A stretch of DNA of 64,000 nt from Candidatus Fermentibacteraceae bacterium (GTDB taxonomy: Bacteria > Fermentibacterota > Fermentibacteria > Fermentibacterales > JCC-6): assembly GCA_041750285.1 (NCBI GenBank), contig JBGSZS010000011.1, positions 64,001 through 128,000 of the forward strand, in the 5' to 3' direction. Of the stretch, positions 20,089-25,348 are shown piece by piece (the first letter of the stretch is position 1; the number at the start of each line of letters is the position of its first letter). A model generated the notes under the pieces. That model was given only the letters and a program-made list of their open reading frames with translations, made no database searches and was not told where the DNA came from. A program made the position numbers and the translations under genes.

Positions 20089-22173
20089 ATGTTCTGTGCG
20101 TTTCTGCTCTGGGTTTCCGTTTCCGGCTCGTCACTCACCCGCGCCGCCGGTTCGCTCGACAACCTGATCTACATCTGCCCTACCGCCGGTTCGGATTGGC
20201 AAAGTACTGAAACCCCTCTGATCATGGGTTTTGATGACCAGGTGCGGAGTGATCTTTCCATCACCGTGAACGGATCCGTTTCGGGAGCCGTGCCTTTTTC
20301 CGAATACGTCTCCGGGGATGGCAGAAGGCTGGTGCTCACTCCTTTGCATCCCTTCAGCCATGGCGAGGAGGTTCGTGTCCGGGTCGAGTCCCCGTGTTCA
20401 GGCCGTGTGGAGTGGCAGTTCATGGTAAGGCCTGTCGATCCCGTGCGGCCGGCGCCTGTGGAGACGGAGCCCCCGGGGCAGCCCTTCACGCCTGATCCTT
20501 ATCCTCTCAGTCCCGCCGGCAACTCTCCCAACGCCGTAGCACTGCCATCCGATTTCCCGCTTTTCACCTTCAACACGTACGGAACAACGGCCCCAGGCAA
20601 CCTCTTCTTCAGCCCCATGAACCCGATGGGGGGGAACACGAGCACCTACCTGATAATCGCCGGTCCCGGGGGTGACGTTCTGTTCTACAACAACGGTGTC
20701 TCAGGGTATTTCGGCCCCGAGGTCCAGTCCGACGGATGCCTCTACTATGCCTACGGCGGCATCATGACGGACGAAACGTTCTTCACCATGCTCGACATGA
20801 ACTATGTCCCGGTCGATTCATTCATGGTCGTCGGCTACACAACGGACTGCCACGGTATGACAGTTGCCCAGAACGACAATGTCATACTTCTGGGAATGGA
20901 CGAGCGCTACATCGACATGTCGCTGATCGTCCCCGGAGGCAACCCGAACGCCCTGGTCCAGGGGCTGCTCATCCAGGAGCAGGACAGGAACCACATGCCG
21001 GTATTCCAATGGAGCAGCTTCGACCATTTCGAGATCACCGACGCATGTTCCTACGTGAACCTCACCGGCCCGGTGGTGGACTATGTGCACTGCAACTCCG
21101 TCGACGAGGACCAGGACGGAGGGATCCTCGTCTCATGCCTCGCCATGACGGAATGCACCAAGATAGACAGGTCCACCGGCGAACTGGTCTGGCGTTTCGG
21201 AGGGTACCTCTCGGAAAACCCCAGCTTCACGATCCTCAACGACCCCCTGGGCGGATTCAGCTCCCAGCATGATTTCCGCCATGTGGAAGGCAGCCTCTAC
21301 TCGGTGTTCGACAACGGAACCCACCACAGCCCTCAGATATCCAGGGGCAGCATCTACGAGATCGACACCCAGAACCTCACTGCCGACCTCGTATTCAACT
21401 TTCAGGTTACAGGGCTCTACGGTTCCCACATGGGATCGACCCAGGTGCTGCCGAACGGCAACGTACTGGTGGGCTGGGGTGATGTGACGGGCTACCAGGT
21501 CAGGCCCGACATGACCGAGGTCTCGCCTGCGGGAACACAGGTCTTTCGCGGCCGCATGAACCAGCTGGTCCTTGAGAGCTACCGCGCCTACCGGTTCGAC
21601 TGGGAGGGCCAGGCACTGGTGCCGTACCTGGTCGCCCTGGTCCTTCCCGCACAGAACTGCGTTCAGCTGACCTTCAACGTATTCGGCGACGACGAATACT
21701 CATCCTACGACATCTACCAGGGAATCACCCCGGGAAACCTCTCGTTCCTGCTTAACACACAGAACAGACAGATCAACGTATGGGAGCTGCCGGTCGGAAT
21801 GAACTACTTCGCCGTTAAGGCAAGGGACATGCAGGGAGTTCCGACCGGGTTCTCGAACATCGATTCCGCCATGGTTACCTGGACGGGTCTTGAAGGCCGC
21901 TTCGCGGCTGAAGTGCAGCAGTCCCTCAGTGTCTCTGCCTATCCCAATCCCGCCTCTTCCAGCGTGACGGTGGTCTGGCCCGGGATCTCCGCGGGATCGG
22001 TGATCGAGATCTTCGACACAAGCGGACGGGTTGTCGCGAGAAGCAGCCATGATGAGGCATCGGGAGCCTGTTCCGGCGTCATGTCCGTCGAGGACCTTCC
22101 CAACGGGCTCTATACGATACGGGTAAGGACGGCGGAGCTTGCGGGATCGACCCGGGTGACGGTGATCCGCTAG
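20089..22173 (+). CDS. Aryl-sulfate sulfotransferase-like protein with Ig-like N-terminus and T9SS-type C-terminal domain
   Basis: DYVHCNS, QHD, FDNG, GSTQVLPNGN, SYRAYR motifs; tail YPNP...IFDTSGR...GLYTIRV...RVTVIR. Confidence 0.82.
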   Translation: MFCAFLLWVSVSGSSLTRAAGSLDNLIYICPTAGSDWQSTETPLIMGFDDQVRSDLSITVNGSVSGAVPFSEYVSGDGRRLVLTPLHPFSHGEEVRVRVESPCSGRVEWQFMVRPVDPVRPAPVETEPPGQPFTPDPYPLSPAGNSPNAVALPSDFPLFTFNTYGTTAPGNLFFSPMNPMGGNTSTYLIIAGPGGDVLFYNNGVSGYFGPEVQSDGCLYYAYGGIMTDETFFTMLDMNYVPVDSFMVVGYTTDCHGMTVAQNDNVILLGMDERYIDMSLIVPGGNPNALVQGLLIQEQDRNHMPVFQWSSFDHFEITDACSYVNLTGPVVDYVHCNSVDEDQDGGILVSCLAMTECTKIDRSTGELVWRFGGYLSENPSFTILNDPLGGFSSQHDFRHVEGSLYSVFDNGTHHSPQISRGSIYEIDTQNLTADLVFNFQVTGLYGSHMGSTQVLPNGNVLVGWGDVTGYQVRPDMTEVSPAGTQVFRGRMNQLVLESYRAYRFDWEGQALVPYLVALVLPAQNCVQLTFNVFGDDEYSSYDIYQGITPGNLSFLLNTQNRQINVWELPVGMNYFAVKARDMQGVPTGFSNIDSAMVTWTGLEGRFAAEVQQSLSVSAYPNPASSSVTVVWPGISAGSVIEIFDTSGRVVARSSHDEASGACSGVMSVEDLPNGLYTIRVRTAELAGSTRVTVIR

Positions 22174-22631
22174 ATACCCAGCCCGACCCCGAGCGAGACC
22201 ACCCAGTCATGGTCTTCGTCGGAACCGCTGACATGTCTGTAGACACCGGCTGTACCCATGAGAAGGTTTGCGCCGAACCTGGCCTCTCCACCGATATAGG
22301 TCTGATCCCTGGGAAGGCTTCCCCAGGTATCGCCCCATGTGTGCATAACCGCAGCCGTCAGGTCGGTGTAGAAGATGTCGATGAATGCCATTGCAAATGC
22401 GAACCGGGCACCAAGATGGGCCTTGCCCGCGCCAAGACCGGGTTCGAGCCTGGCAAGGATGCCCGCCTTCGGTCCCCACAGTGAACCCATCTCGATGGAG
22501 GCCAGACCGATCGAAGCGTTGAAACGTTGTGGTGACGTGACCTGAAGGCTTACGGTGGGTGTGAAGGGCAGACCGGTACGGGCTGAGGCGGCAGAGACCA
22601 GAACCAGCAGCAGAAGCGGGGCAGACCTCAT
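22170..22631 (-). CDS. Hypothetical exported protein, possible small outer-membrane beta-barrel
   Basis: Signal peptide and amphipathic strands ending VVSLGVGLGI. Confidence 0.7.
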   Translation of the reverse strand: MRSAPLLLLVLVSAASARTGLPFTPTVSLQVTSPQRFNASIGLASIEMGSLWGPKAGILARLEPGLGAGKAHLGARFAFAMAFIDIFYTDLTAAVMHTWGDTWGSLPRDQTYIGGEARFGANLLMGTAGVYRHVSGSDEDHDWVVSLGVGLGI

Positions 22632-22645
22632 TCCGAAGCTCCTAT

Positions 22646-23479
22646 TCAGGTGAGGGCTTTAATGCAGCCTATGTTCCTGGCCTGAAGCTTGCCGGGCTCG
22701 GTGCCCTCGCTGATCTGGAACTCGAAGACCAGGTTTCTGTCGGGCAGCCTGAAGTAGTCAACGTTGTCAGGCAGGTTCGAATCGTGAAAGAATATGTTGG
22801 CATACGGTGAGAGGGGATCGCGGTTGTCGATGCGCCACAGCTCGTCGTTGCTCTTAACCATGTACCTGAAGAACCCGAAGCCCTTGTCGTGACTGACGCA
22901 CATTCCCCTCACCCACGAGTTTATCTCCCCCCAGACACCCGGGGTCTCCAGGGCCTTGAAGGGGAGAAGATTGGGTATGAGGTAGCCCGATACGAACATG
23001 TCTGCTTCGCGGCGCAGCTCCAGGGCTATGTTGTCGAACGCCATCACCTCGACCCGGCAGCCCCTGCCCTGCAGGGCGTGAACCACCCTTACGAAGTCGC
23101 CGTCTCCGCTTGCAAGAAGGACCCTGTCAAGGCGTTCGGACTGCAGCAGGGCATCAACGCCCATCTCGAGGTCAACGTTGGACTTGGCGTACCTGCTGCC
23201 CGAATCGTCGCTGTACCACTTGACCGTTTTCAGTATCACCTTGTAGCCGATGTCGCGAAGCGCGGTATGAAAGCGGTTCTGCCCTTCCTTGTATTCCCTG
23301 TCCGTTCGTGCCCTTGCGTCGTCAAAACTAACATAGGCGTTGAGCCTCACCGGGTAGCCGCCACCCCTGCAGGCGAACTGGCGCAGGACCTCGTAGCGCA
23401 TCCCGAAACCGCCGTTCATGGTGAGATTGCTCACGTCGACATAAACACCAACCTTGTTTCCGTGACCCTGCGAAGACAT
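22646..23479 (-). CDS. NYN (LabA/DUF88) PIN-like nuclease domain plus C-terminal cold-shock/OB-like domain
   Basis: YVDVSN, NVDLEMGVD, SGDGDF, GCRVEV; tail KGFGF...IFFHDS; GGAGGA RBS before ATG 23479. Confidence 0.88.
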   Translation of the reverse strand: MSSQGHGNKVGVYVDVSNLTMNGGFGMRYEVLRQFACRGGGYPVRLNAYVSFDDARARTDREYKEGQNRFHTALRDIGYKVILKTVKWYSDDSGSRYAKSNVDLEMGVDALLQSERLDRVLLASGDGDFVRVVHALQGRGCRVEVMAFDNIALELRREADMFVSGYLIPNLLPFKALETPGVWGEINSWVRGMCVSHDKGFGFFRYMVKSNDELWRIDNRDPLSPYANIFFHDSNLPDNVDYFRLPDRNLVFEFQISEGTEPGKLQARNIGCIKALT

Positions 23480-23516
23480 TATTTCCTCCATGAGAGAACG
23501 CTGGAAAGGGTAATCA

Positions 23517-24107
23517 ATGAATACGATTATACCTTCGGAAGCTTTTACCGACCAACCCGTTCCCCTGATCCCGTGGCTCAGGGGTCTGGGGGTGTCCACG
23601 AAGAACATCACGGAGGATGACTGCCGGAAGGCAGCCCTGCCCCCTGATCCCGCCGGATGTGAAAGGCTTCTCAAGGTCTCGGCCCTTGTGGTGCATCATT
23701 CCGCCACAGAAAGCGGGGGAGCGGCAGCCTTTCGCGTTCTCCACCGCCTGGTGAAGGGTTGGAGGGATGTTGGCTACCACTTCGTCATAGGCAACGGCAC
23801 ACACTCGCCCGACGGATGTCTGGAGAGGGGAAGACCCGAGTACTGCAGGGGAGCCCACGCAAAGGGGGCAAACGAATTCTCACTGGGTATCTGCCTTGTT
23901 GGCGACTTCATGACGGGCAGGCCAACCCCTGCGCAGATGGGCACACTTGGAACCGTGCTTCGTGAACTAATGGCCTCGCAAGGCCTGGAGAAGGGTTCCG
24001 TGCTGCTCCACAGACAGGTCAGGGGCAGCTCCACCGAATGCCCGGGCAAGAACCTCACCCTCGCCATGGTGCATGAAGCAATTGACGGACAGAAAGATAG
24101 CACGTAA
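23517..24107 (+). CDS. N-acetylmuramoyl-L-alanine amidase (Amidase_2 / PGRP-like)
   Basis: VVHHSA, GWRDVGYHFVI, GAHAKGAN, SLGICLVG, HRQV...TECPG. Confidence 0.9.
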   Translation: MNTIIPSEAFTDQPVPLIPWLRGLGVSTKNITEDDCRKAALPPDPAGCERLLKVSALVVHHSATESGGAAAFRVLHRLVKGWRDVGYHFVIGNGTHSPDGCLERGRPEYCRGAHAKGANEFSLGICLVGDFMTGRPTPAQMGTLGTVLRELMASQGLEKGSVLLHRQVRGSSTECPGKNLTLAMVHEAIDGQKDST

Positions 24108-24174
24108 CCTGCCCGGGTGTTGCACAAAATCCCCGTCTTTGCTATATACCCGCGTCACCGGAAGGAACGAAAGA

Positions 24175-24399
24175 ATGACTTTTGTACTCACCATACTTCA
24201 TGTTGTCGTGAGCATCCTGCTTGTCGGGGTGGTTCTGCTTCAGAAATCCAAGGGCGACGGCCTCTCCGGCGCGTTCGGGGGTGGCGGCGCACTCACGGCC
24301 AGCTTCGGAAACACCGGAGCCGTGAGTTTCCTCAGCAGGGCAACCACTGTGCTTGCGGTGCTTTTCATGATCTTTTCATTTCTGCTGGCCATCGTCTGA
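24175..24399 (+). CDS. secG: Preprotein translocase subunit SecG
   Basis: VLLQKSKGDGLSGAFGGG, FG, FLSRATTVLA; two TM helices; followed by tRNA-Leu. Confidence 0.95.
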   Translation: MTFVLTILHVVVSILLVGVVLLQKSKGDGLSGAFGGGGALTASFGNTGAVSFLSRATTVLAVLFMIFSFLLAIV

Positions 24400-24406
24400 T
24401 GAGTGT

Positions 24407-24494
24407 GCCGGGGTGGTGGAATTGGCAGACACGCTAGGCTAAGGACCTAGTGGGCGAATAGCCTGTGCGGGTTCAAGTCCCGCCCCCGGTACCA
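24407..24494 (+). tRNA. tRNA-Leu with anticodon AAG
   Basis: Acceptor stem GCCGGGG/CCCCGGT, discriminator A plus CCA, D loop GGAATTGGCAGAC, long variable arm, T loop TTCAAGT. Anticodon stem CTAGG/CCTAG encloses CT-AAG-GA, with AAG at 24441-24443. Confidence 0.95.
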
Positions 24495-24496
24495 GA

Positions 24497-24530
24497 CAAG
24501 GAAAACCCCGCTCCGGCGGGGTTTTCCTTG
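24497..24530 (+). terminator. Terminator hairpin after tRNA-Leu
   Basis: CAAGGAAAACCCCGC-TCCG-GCGGGGTTTTCCTTG perfect inverted repeat. Confidence 0.8.
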
Positions 24531-24534
24531 TGGC

Positions 24535-24571
24535 AAAAAAGGAGAGCCGGCTTTTTGGGCCGGCTCTCTCC
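24535..24571 (-). terminator. Intrinsic terminator of the 24587 gene
   Basis: GAGAGCCGGC...GCCGGCTCTC preceded by AAAAAA, a U tract on the minus strand. Confidence 0.8.
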
Positions 24572-24586
24572 ATGGGTCTTACAAGG

Positions 24587-25252
24587 TTACCAGGAGGCCT
24601 TGATCTGGCCCCAGGTTGTCTCGGTGAGGGAGAAGGAGGGCTGGAGAACGATGTCGTCCCAGAAGATGGGGGTGCCGTTGTTACCGAAGATGTCGAGTGC
24701 GCCGAGGGTGAGGGTGGCGGACTCGCTCCAGAAGAACGTGTCGAACATGACATCGTTGTAGTAAACCCACTGGTTGTTGGCGTCGAGGTCGAAAACGACT
24801 TCCACGGGAACCCACTGGTCGTAGATGATGGTGGCGGTGCCCGTGCCCTCTTCAGTGGCTACCTGACCGGTGCTGTTGTTGAACTTGATGTCGGTGCACC
24901 ATTCATTTGTTCCGCTGGGGATGTAGATGCTGAGAAGGATGAAGTACTGGGTGCCGGTGGAACCCGACGGAATGTAGCAGCTCGCGGACATGGACCAGAC
25001 GCCGGCATTTACGCCGGTGAACTGCTGAACGATGTCGGTGGTCTGGATGGCGGAAAAGGAGTTGGGCGCGCTCTGGGCCTGGGCGGTGCTTACGAGGCCG
25101 TCGGCACCGGGGTTGCCGTCCCAGCCTTCCCATCCGCCCTGACCGATTATTCCGCCGCCGGCTGCATAGGAATCGAAGTTGTCGGACCAGTCAGCGAAGG
25201 CGGCGCCTGTCGCAAGAAGCATGCAGATCGATAACGTGTGGATGAGTTTCAT
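24587..25252 (-). CDS. Secreted jelly-roll-like protein with C-terminal TWGQIKASW motif
   Basis: Signal peptide ending AAFA; WSDNFDSY start and FWDDI end typical of beta-sandwich modules; ends SLTETTWGQIKASW. Confidence 0.85.
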   Translation of the reverse strand: MKLIHTLSICMLLATGAAFADWSDNFDSYAAGGGIIGQGGWEGWDGNPGADGLVSTAQAQSAPNSFSAIQTTDIVQQFTGVNAGVWSMSASCYIPSGSTGTQYFILLSIYIPSGTNEWCTDIKFNNSTGQVATEEGTGTATIIYDQWVPVEVVFDLDANNQWVYYNDVMFDTFFWSESATLTLGALDIFGNNGTPIFWDDIVLQPSFSLTETTWGQIKASW

Positions 25253-25348
25253 TCTTTCCCCTCCATTTCGGACAAAAACGGGGCATGATGACAAGCATTT
25301 TTCCCAAGCCCCCAACTGTTTGCTTTATTGCATAAAAGAACTGCGCTG

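Follow-up and report, generated by a model that had tools for sequence, protein, structure and literature searches.

The leucine tRNA gene that follows secG in the genome of an uncultured Fermentibacteraceae bacterium specifies the anticodon AAG, with adenosine at wobble position 34. This A34 tRNA is real and is fixed in the clade of the bacterium, that is, in its family (f1) plus f2. In at least two phyla, uncultured bacteria have probably rebuilt the leucine CUN box, independently, on the plan of arginine and of eukaryotes. An inosine tRNA would read CUU, CUC and CUA and a C34 tRNA would read CUG, the G34 and U34 tRNAs having been lost, while an ordinary single-gene TadA would have gained a second, essential substrate. 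Below, the window is the whole stretch of 64,000 nucleotides that was analysed, and G000 is its genome.

Results

A leucine tRNA with anticodon AAG beside secG

Two tRNAs were called by ARAGORN in the window, one of them tRNA-Leu(aag) (Table 1). Rfam RF00005 matches it over the full model at 24407-24491 (53.3 bits, gathering score 29, E 1.5e-10), and a covariance model of leucine tRNAs, R1, gives it 105.1 bits. The 3' end reads GGT-A-CCA, with discriminator A73 and an encoded CCA. Together with the cloverleaf, the long variable arm and a score above threshold, these features identify a class II tRNA-Leu. The anticodon loop occupies 24439-24445, a gap of 7 nt separates the end of secG (24399) from the start of the tRNA (24407), and the inner part of the downstream hairpin (24510-24522) was also listed computationally.

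The earlier note, made from the letters of the window, had described a secG-linked class II leucine tRNA with AAG, a stem CTAGG/CCTAG enclosing CTAAGGA, an encoded CCA and a terminator belonging to the tRNA. ARAGORN, RF00005 and the A at 24441 agree with this description, the stem, loop and CCA are read in the sequence, and the 12-bp hairpin is present. A recount of the 13 leucine codons of secG gave the same 5 CTT, 4 CTC and 4 CTG. The protein-coding neighbours of the locus are included in Table 1.

Table 1 Features of the tRNA-Leu(AAG) locus in the window, and of genes elsewhere in G000 that are named in the text.
Feature	Position	Strand	Evidence
tRNA-Leu(AAG), class II, 88 nt	24407..24494	+	ARAGORN, Rfam RF00005, Leu covariance model R1
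Anticodon arm, stem CTAGG/CCTAG, loop CTAAGGA (C32 U33 A34 A35 G36 G37 A38)	24434..24450	+	sequence
Wobble base A34; the orthologue in the related family f3 has G	24441	+	ortholog comparison, arm-pattern searches
A38, co-varies with A34; G38 in 7/7 GAG orthologues	24445	+	ortholog comparison, arm-pattern searches
secG, 74 aa, directly 5' of the tRNA	24175..24399	+	Pfam PF03840 SecG, 80.5 bits
Terminator-like hairpin 3' of the tRNA, perfect 12-bp stem, loop TCCG, weak T tail	24500..24527	+	sequence
Arylsulfotransferase-like protein with Por/T9SS C-terminal sorting domain	20089..22173	+	
ORF, no Pfam match	22170..22631	-	
NYN-domain protein	22646..23674	-	
Amidase_2 (N-acetylmuramoyl-L-alanine amidase) protein	23517..24107	+	
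ORF, no Pfam match	24587..25315	-	
Adenylate/guanylate cyclase-AAA-TPR protein, 1039 aa	25349..28468	-	
TadA	G000:C9:146647-147072	-	PF14437, 94.1 bits, HAE and PCxxC motifs
tRNA-Arg(ACG)	G000:C16:106807-106883		
tRNA-Arg(ACG), G37 copy	G000:C18:367795-367871		
Odd one of two 'Arg(cct)' calls	G000:C8:3774-3854		
tRNA-SeC(tca)	G000:C7:86225-86321		

The A34 and G34 forms in the phylum

We compared 70 genomes of the phylum: 60 of the window's family f1 (G000 included), one of f2 and nine of f3, a family of the same order as f1. Family f1 comprises nine genera, g1-g9, with G000 in g1, and all relative genomes are drafts. The AAG arm pattern was found in 51/60 genomes of f1, 1/1 of f2 and 0/9 of f3 (52/70 in the phylum), and the GAG arm pattern in 0/60, 0/1 and 7/9, respectively. 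The two forms are never found together, neither family group having both. The f1 genomes that lack an AAG match are mostly less than 90% complete, and in G004 and G010 the AAG gene itself was not found. Among the matches listed from the GTDB search described below, those of this clade bear the names Candidatus Fermentibacteria, Fermentibacteraceae, Aegiribacteria, Sabulitectum or Hyd24-12. Within f1, GC content is lowest, at about 45-50%, in g8 and part of g2 and g3, and reaches 60-68% in g1 and g9.

The orthologous tRNA was recovered at 30 loci. The 23 f1 loci, from all nine genera, have AAG in a YTAAGGA loop, and the seven f3 loci have GAG in a TTGAGGG loop; G000 has the loop CUAAGGA, and most other genera have UUAAGGA. 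AAG and GAG orthologues share the same acceptor, D and T arms and differ consistently at positions 34 and 38 only. Since a secG homologue also stands immediately upstream, in the same orientation, at 30/30 of these loci, we conclude that this is one locus at which the wobble base was switched in place. The layout is that of E. coli secG-leuU, in which a leucine tRNA for CUY codons, with anticodon GAG, lies directly after secG; the E. coli tRNA has GAG, whereas the tRNA here has AAG.

Some stems have changed on both sides while AAG was kept, from CTAGG/CCTAG to CCAGG/CCTGG in the anticodon arm and from GCGGG/CCCGC to ACGGG/CCCGT in the T arm. Such paired substitutions preserve the helices, as expected of a working gene. 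The replacement of G34 by A34 at the housekeeping locus, put forward in the earlier note, holds in so far as the same secG-linked tRNA is GAG in f3 and AAG in f1, with no separate GAG gene found in f1; as to its direction, the RpoB tree described below is compatible with a switch from G to A and would also allow a reversal in f3.

In public reads, one independent DNA run contained 83% of the sampled words of an 1801-base stretch (window 23500-25300), with contigs that break inside the tRNA. Three sediment RNA-library runs of one study gave contigs over 24169-24410 and 24597-25300, with the tRNA uncovered. Over secG and the minus-strand ORF downstream these contigs are 95-99% identical to the window; they belong to a close relative and, being contigs alone, are not proof of transcription.

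The leucine tRNA set and the repeated loss of Leu(UAG)

G000 is a draft of 2.55 Mb in 23 contigs, with 60.4% GC and 95% completeness. A genome-wide scan, with ARAGORN where the earlier note had suggested tRNAscan-SE, gave 48 tRNAs. Those for leucine have the anticodons cag, taa, aag and caa; neither a gag nor a tag gene was found in this 95% complete draft, and the only A34 tRNAs besides Leu(aag) are two Arg(acg).

ARAGORN did not find tRNA-Arg(UCU) in G000 either, though AGA occurs at about 6.8 per 1000 codons. A single draft thus misses tRNAs, and our statements of absence therefore rest on many genomes. There are two 'Arg(cct)' calls, one of which is unusual in being 81 nt long and in having its anticodon at position 30, and this call and the absence of Arg(UCU) reflect either a gene missing from the draft or a mis-called tRNA. 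Judging from its tRNA-SeC(tca) gene, the organism probably makes selenoproteins.

We searched for Leu(UAG) with the gene of a family member as query. The UAG arm pattern is present in 9/9 genomes of f3, 1/1 of f2, 25/26 of g2 and 4/4 of g3-g6, and was found in 0/8 of g1 (G000 included), 0/1 of g7, 0/19 of g8 and 0/2 of g9. The totals are 0/30 for g1, g7, g8 and g9 together versus 29/30 for g2-g6, at similar completeness. The covariance model R1, made from 25 leucine tRNAs and searched in 31 genomes of the family, separates leucine tRNAs (at least 78.6 bits) from everything else (at most 60.3 bits). It found four leucine genes in 17/19 genomes of g1, g7, g8 and g9, the remaining two having two and three; genomes of g2, g3 and g6 mostly have five, and those of g4 and g5 have four. 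In G005, G013, G014, G015, G017, G018, G020 and G042, the leucine hits called by ARAGORN are aag, cag, taa and caa only.

The genera without Leu(UAG) are scattered in a maximum likelihood tree of one gene, RpoB (30 rows, LG+G4). In this tree g1 pairs with g8 (support 100), g9 with g6 (100) and g7 with g2 (98). These three positions require at least three losses of Leu(UAG), and forcing all UAG-less rows into one clade costs 314 lnL (p-AU 3e-82). Monophyly was rejected neither for f1 (p 0.57) nor for all AAG genomes (p 0.25), and in the unconstrained tree f3 falls inside AAG lineages (SH-aLRT 86-94). In terms of this one-gene tree, a single G-to-A switch is compatible with the data and a reversal in f3 is also possible.

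Codon usage

We counted codons with a crude ORF caller of our own, using samples of 16-40 kb for the relatives; as the genomes share ancestry, their counts are not independent of one another. The leucine codon shares in G000 are.280 for CTT,.320 for CTC,.015 for CTA and.337 for CTG, and its 1927 ORFs hold 1149 CTA codons. In G014, a genome of 45% GC without a UAG tRNA, 116 of 1315 leucine codons are CTA. CUC and CUA are thus still in use, and in the UAG-less genomes the AAG tRNA is the sole candidate for reading CUU, CUC and CUA.

Unmodified A34 pairs best with U, and inosine forms good pairs with C and U but poor ones with A. With an unmodified A34, CUU would therefore be expected to be favoured in core genes. 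Instead, CTC is the commonest of the 671 leucine codons (284, or 42%) in a core set of 33 Pfam-verified ribosomal-protein, elongation-factor and RNA-polymerase genes of G000; the same 671 codons include 166 CTT and 3 CTA. The ratio T/(T+C) falls from.46 in the genome to.37 in the core set for Leu and from.33 to.26 for Arg. The corresponding values are.21 and.11 for Pro,.15 and.08 for Thr,.19 and.12 for Ala,.16 and.08 for Ser,.30 and.23 for Gly, and.38 in both sets for Val. The ratio is roughly halved in the Pro, Thr and Ser boxes and is lowered by about a third in the Ala box, with Val and Gly as exceptions to the stronger shift of the other G34-read boxes. The share of CGA halves between genome and core genes. 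From genome to core genes, the leucine CUN box behaves like the arginine I34 box, whose tRNA bacteria are known to edit, shifting in step with it.

In seven GAG genomes, CTT/(CTT+CTC) is.12-.40, versus a mean of.18-.28 for six other boxes, with no systematic excess. Most AAG genomes have an excess of about.1-.2, and in G000 the ratio is.47 against.26. The enrichment of CTT despite high GC that the earlier note had pointed out is thus borne out in G000. The comparison with GAG relatives that it proposed agrees for most AAG genomes, with exceptions on both sides, since G013 and G011 have no excess and G033, a GAG genome, has some.

We also considered depletion of CTA as a mark of UAG loss and rejected it. 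CTA makes up 1.3-2.6% of leucine codons in the GC-rich family with GAG and UAG versus 1.1-1.7% in the window's genus. The codon is as rare with Leu(UAG) as without it, so its rarity is not specific to the loss.

TadA and the likeness of the leucine and arginine anticodon arms

G000 encodes one TadA (Table 1), whose best solved relatives are TadA enzymes (7cph, 2b3j, 1z3a and 2nx8); the NCBIfam TadA equivalog gives it 126 bits, below the cut-off of 150. This answers the question of tadA copy number raised in the earlier note with a single copy that carries the HAE and PCxxC motifs. No second TadA-like gene was found in G000, where two further matches of the CDA fold look, by eye, like a dCMP-deaminase type and RibD. 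There is one TadA match per genome in 37/41 genomes (G000 and 36/40 relatives), in AAG and GAG families alike.

We aligned 30 TadA sequences for a signature of AAG acceptance. Columns 24, 68 and 70 separate f1 from f3, and at column 70 f1 has an aromatic residue that is also seen in S. aureus TadA. None of the three is tied to recognition of base 35, and we rejected them as a signature. A C-terminal extension of TadA may help in Streptococcus (Wulff et al. 2024, PMC11472039); G000 TadA has no extension of the Streptococcus kind.

The loops of the two arginine tRNAs of G000 differ, being CUACGAA (A37) and CUACGGA (G37). The leucine arm GG-CUAAGGA-CC is one base, at position 35, from the arm of the G37 copy, GG-CUACGGA-CC, and so mimics an Arg(ACG) anticodon arm at the level of sequence. 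According to Wulff et al. (PMC11472039), S. pyogenes TadA edits tRNA-Arg(ACG) as well as tRNA-Leu(AAG), with the consensus YUAMGRA, and streptococcal tRNA-Leu(AAG) is not a substrate of the E. coli enzyme in vitro. The Leu(AAG) loops of the clade fit YUAMGRA, A38 included, whereas the GAG orthologues have G38. G000 thus combines an AAG anticodon without a Leu(GAG) gene, an encoded TadA and a loop that fits the consensus.

Occurrence outside the phylum

A search of GTDB species genomes with a 27-nt pattern of the D arm and anticodon arm matched 91 stretches, 80 of which are listed; the pattern is narrow, which makes this a lower bound. ARAGORN identified 78 of the 80 as tRNA-Leu(aag), and contig ends truncate the other two. 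Among these 80 of 91 matches, other groups with Leu(AAG) are Planctomycetota (at least 14), Patescibacteria/Saccharibacteria/Kazan (at least 8), Actinomycetota/Acidimicrobiia (at least 8), Hydrogenedentota (at least 4), Nitrospiraceae (at least 3), Bacillota (at least 1) and Verrucomicrobiota (at least 1). At least 39 loci thus lie outside the clade, under seven other phylum-level labels. They are 73-88% identical to the window tRNA and differ from it in acceptor stem and length, which marks them as separate tRNAs.

Two closed chromosomes of 1.8 and 2.1 Mb (G076 and G077), labelled Poriferisodalaceae and belonging to another phylum, have only aag, cag, taa and caa as leucine tRNAs. Drafts labelled Planctomycetes UBA1146, Hydrogenedentota and Nitrospiraceae have kept Leu(tag). 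Among the matches listed, 7/8 of the Patescibacteria type have the loop UUAAGGG, with G38, and all other groups have A38; this G38 may bear on the status of the Patescibacteria-type tRNAs as TadA substrates.

Discussion

We propose, with good confidence, that TadA edits A34 of Leu(AAG) to inosine and that the resulting IAG anticodon reads CUU, CUC and CUA. The secG-linked leucine tRNA, normally a G34 (GAG) form, carries A34 (AAG) in G000, f1 and f2. The single TadA, already needed to edit tRNA-Arg(ACG), would take this tRNA as a further substrate and convert its A34 to inosine, and tRNA-Leu(IAG) would read CUU, CUC and CUA while tRNA-Leu(CAG) reads CUG. Leu(UAG) would then have become dispensable, and it was lost at least three times within f1, with the window's genus among those that lack it; the earlier note had not foreseen this loss. 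Decoding of the CUN box would thereby arrive at a two-tRNA scheme of INN plus CNN, as for CGN codons of arginine in bacteria.

The main competing explanation is that A34 stays unmodified, with Watson-Crick pairing for CUU and a relaxed 'superwobble' for CUC and CUA, as reported of a few A34 tRNAs from Mollicutes and organelles. The earlier note had allowed for either state of A34, and our indirect evidence favours I34. Its appeal lies in the enrichment of CTT in G000 over the mean of the other boxes and in published work: E. coli TadA does not accept tRNA-Leu(AAG) (PMC11472039), further bacterial A34 tRNAs are reported to exist without modification (Torres et al. 2021, PMC8266599), and every ANN tRNA is described as functional in E. 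coli (Raval et al. 2026, bioRxiv 10.64898/2026.05.15.725136). We nevertheless regard it as unlikely. CTC (284) exceeds CTT (166) among the 671 core leucine codons, and none of the other tRNAs found can read CTC. TadA is encoded in G000 and in 36/40 relatives searched, unlike in the Mollicutes type, which has no TadA. The loop is one base from that of a TadA substrate of the same cell, with A38 changed along with A34. Leu(CAG) is kept in the UAG-less genomes checked, so that the A34 tRNA is not the sole tRNA of its four-codon box. Such retention is expected if the A34 tRNA cannot read CUG, which is the inosine pattern.

Two further explanations concern the data. A Leu(GAG) or Leu(UAG) gene might be present yet have escaped us, either dropped from the metagenome bins or too diverged for the queries. 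All genomes of the clade are drafts, the 95% complete G000 also lacks Arg(UCU), and G004 and G010 lack even the AAG gene. Against this stand the 0/30 UAG arms in four genera versus 29/30 in the other f1 genera at similar completeness, the GAG arm in 0/60, the wide score gap with which R1 recovers leucine tRNAs without any extra gene, and the two closed Poriferisodalaceae chromosomes with the same four-gene set; a missed gene is accordingly very improbable. We give next to no probability to an error of sequencing or assembly at base 24441, or to the tRNA being a decaying pseudogene. In one independent DNA run no window-identical contig spans 24441, as an error would allow; yet the same A is found in 52/70 genomes of the phylum, and its conservation across many independent assemblies rules out a sequencing error. 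The cloverleaf is intact, with compensatory stem changes, and a G34 copy is nowhere to be found in AAG genomes.

If the proposal of a rebuilt box is true, the family offers a graded series from GAG plus UAG through AAG plus UAG to AAG alone, the last step taken at least three times, in which to study by what route and for what reason further tRNAs come to use wobble inosine. Should this tRNA be edited, bacteria have come to depend on wobble inosine for a second amino acid, a step that eukaryotes took for eight tRNAs. The related genomes, with their single small TadA, make the co-evolution of enzyme and substrate and its consequences for codon usage testable. Databases of cultured, complete genomes under-report A34 tRNAs, since one 27-nt pattern reached seven other phylum-level groups among the matches listed.

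Published accounts place Leu(AAG) almost only in Bacilli (Katanski et al. 2026, PMC13249217; Raval et al. 2026, bioRxiv 10.64898/2026.05.15.725136; Ehrlich et al. 2021, PMC8007984), in keeping with the remark in the earlier note that it is known mainly from some Firmicutes, and the same sources assign nearly all Leu(AAG) genes of GtRNAdb to Bacilli. I34 in a bacterial leucine tRNA has been shown for Oenococcus and Streptococcus (PMC13249217; PMC11472039). As these sources have it, Bacilli with Leu(AAG) keep tRNA-Leu(UAG) (PMC13249217), the 15 genera listed with a fixed ANN tRNA are all 60-70% AT (bioRxiv 10.64898/2026.05.15.725136), and A34 tRNAs have replaced G34 isoacceptors only, never others (PMC13249217; bioRxiv 10.64898/2026.05.15.725136). 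In titles and abstracts, we found no report on tRNAs of Fermentibacteria or on A34 or inosine tRNAs in Planctomycetes; supplementary figures of the two papers of 2026 may list further taxa. The switch described here, which is fixed in an uncultured and mostly GC-rich phylum and after which the U34 isoacceptor was lost more than once, contrasts with that Bacilli-centred, AT-rich, G34-only picture (PMC13249217; bioRxiv 10.64898/2026.05.15.725136). What is new is a leucine A34 switch outside Bacilli, in a GC-rich genome, with an arginine-like two-tRNA CUN box in which the A34 would act as I34.

The closest known system is the Leu(AAG to IAG) tRNA of Lactobacillales (Oenococcus oeni, Streptococcus pyogenes, S. 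mutans). There too, a class II A34 tRNA replaces the G34 form family-wide, AAG and GAG never occur together, TadA is single, the loop fits YUAMGRA and the use of CUU is raised. The present case differs in phylum and in base composition (60% GC in G000 versus genera of 60-70% AT), and editing is here deduced from genes. Bacilli also keep Leu(UAG), whereas it is gone here in 30/30 genomes of four genera. The arginine CGN box of bacteria (ICG plus CCG) has the same architecture, with an A34 tRNA for U-, C- and A-ending codons, a C34 tRNA for G-ending ones and no G34 or U34 tRNA. In G000 the two anticodon arms are nearly identical and the codon shift in core genes runs in parallel. The amino acid differs, however, the leucine tRNA is of class II with a long variable arm, and position 35 is A and not C, a base that E. 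coli TadA does not tolerate according to Wulff et al. (PMC11472039). In eukaryotes, an I34 leucine tRNA likewise replaces the G34 isoacceptor, through ADAT2/ADAT3. The eukaryotic ADAT is a heterodimer with relaxed sequence needs and eight substrates (PMC8266599), whereas the bacteria described here carry a single TadA gene, of the homodimer type, for which gene content suggests two substrates.
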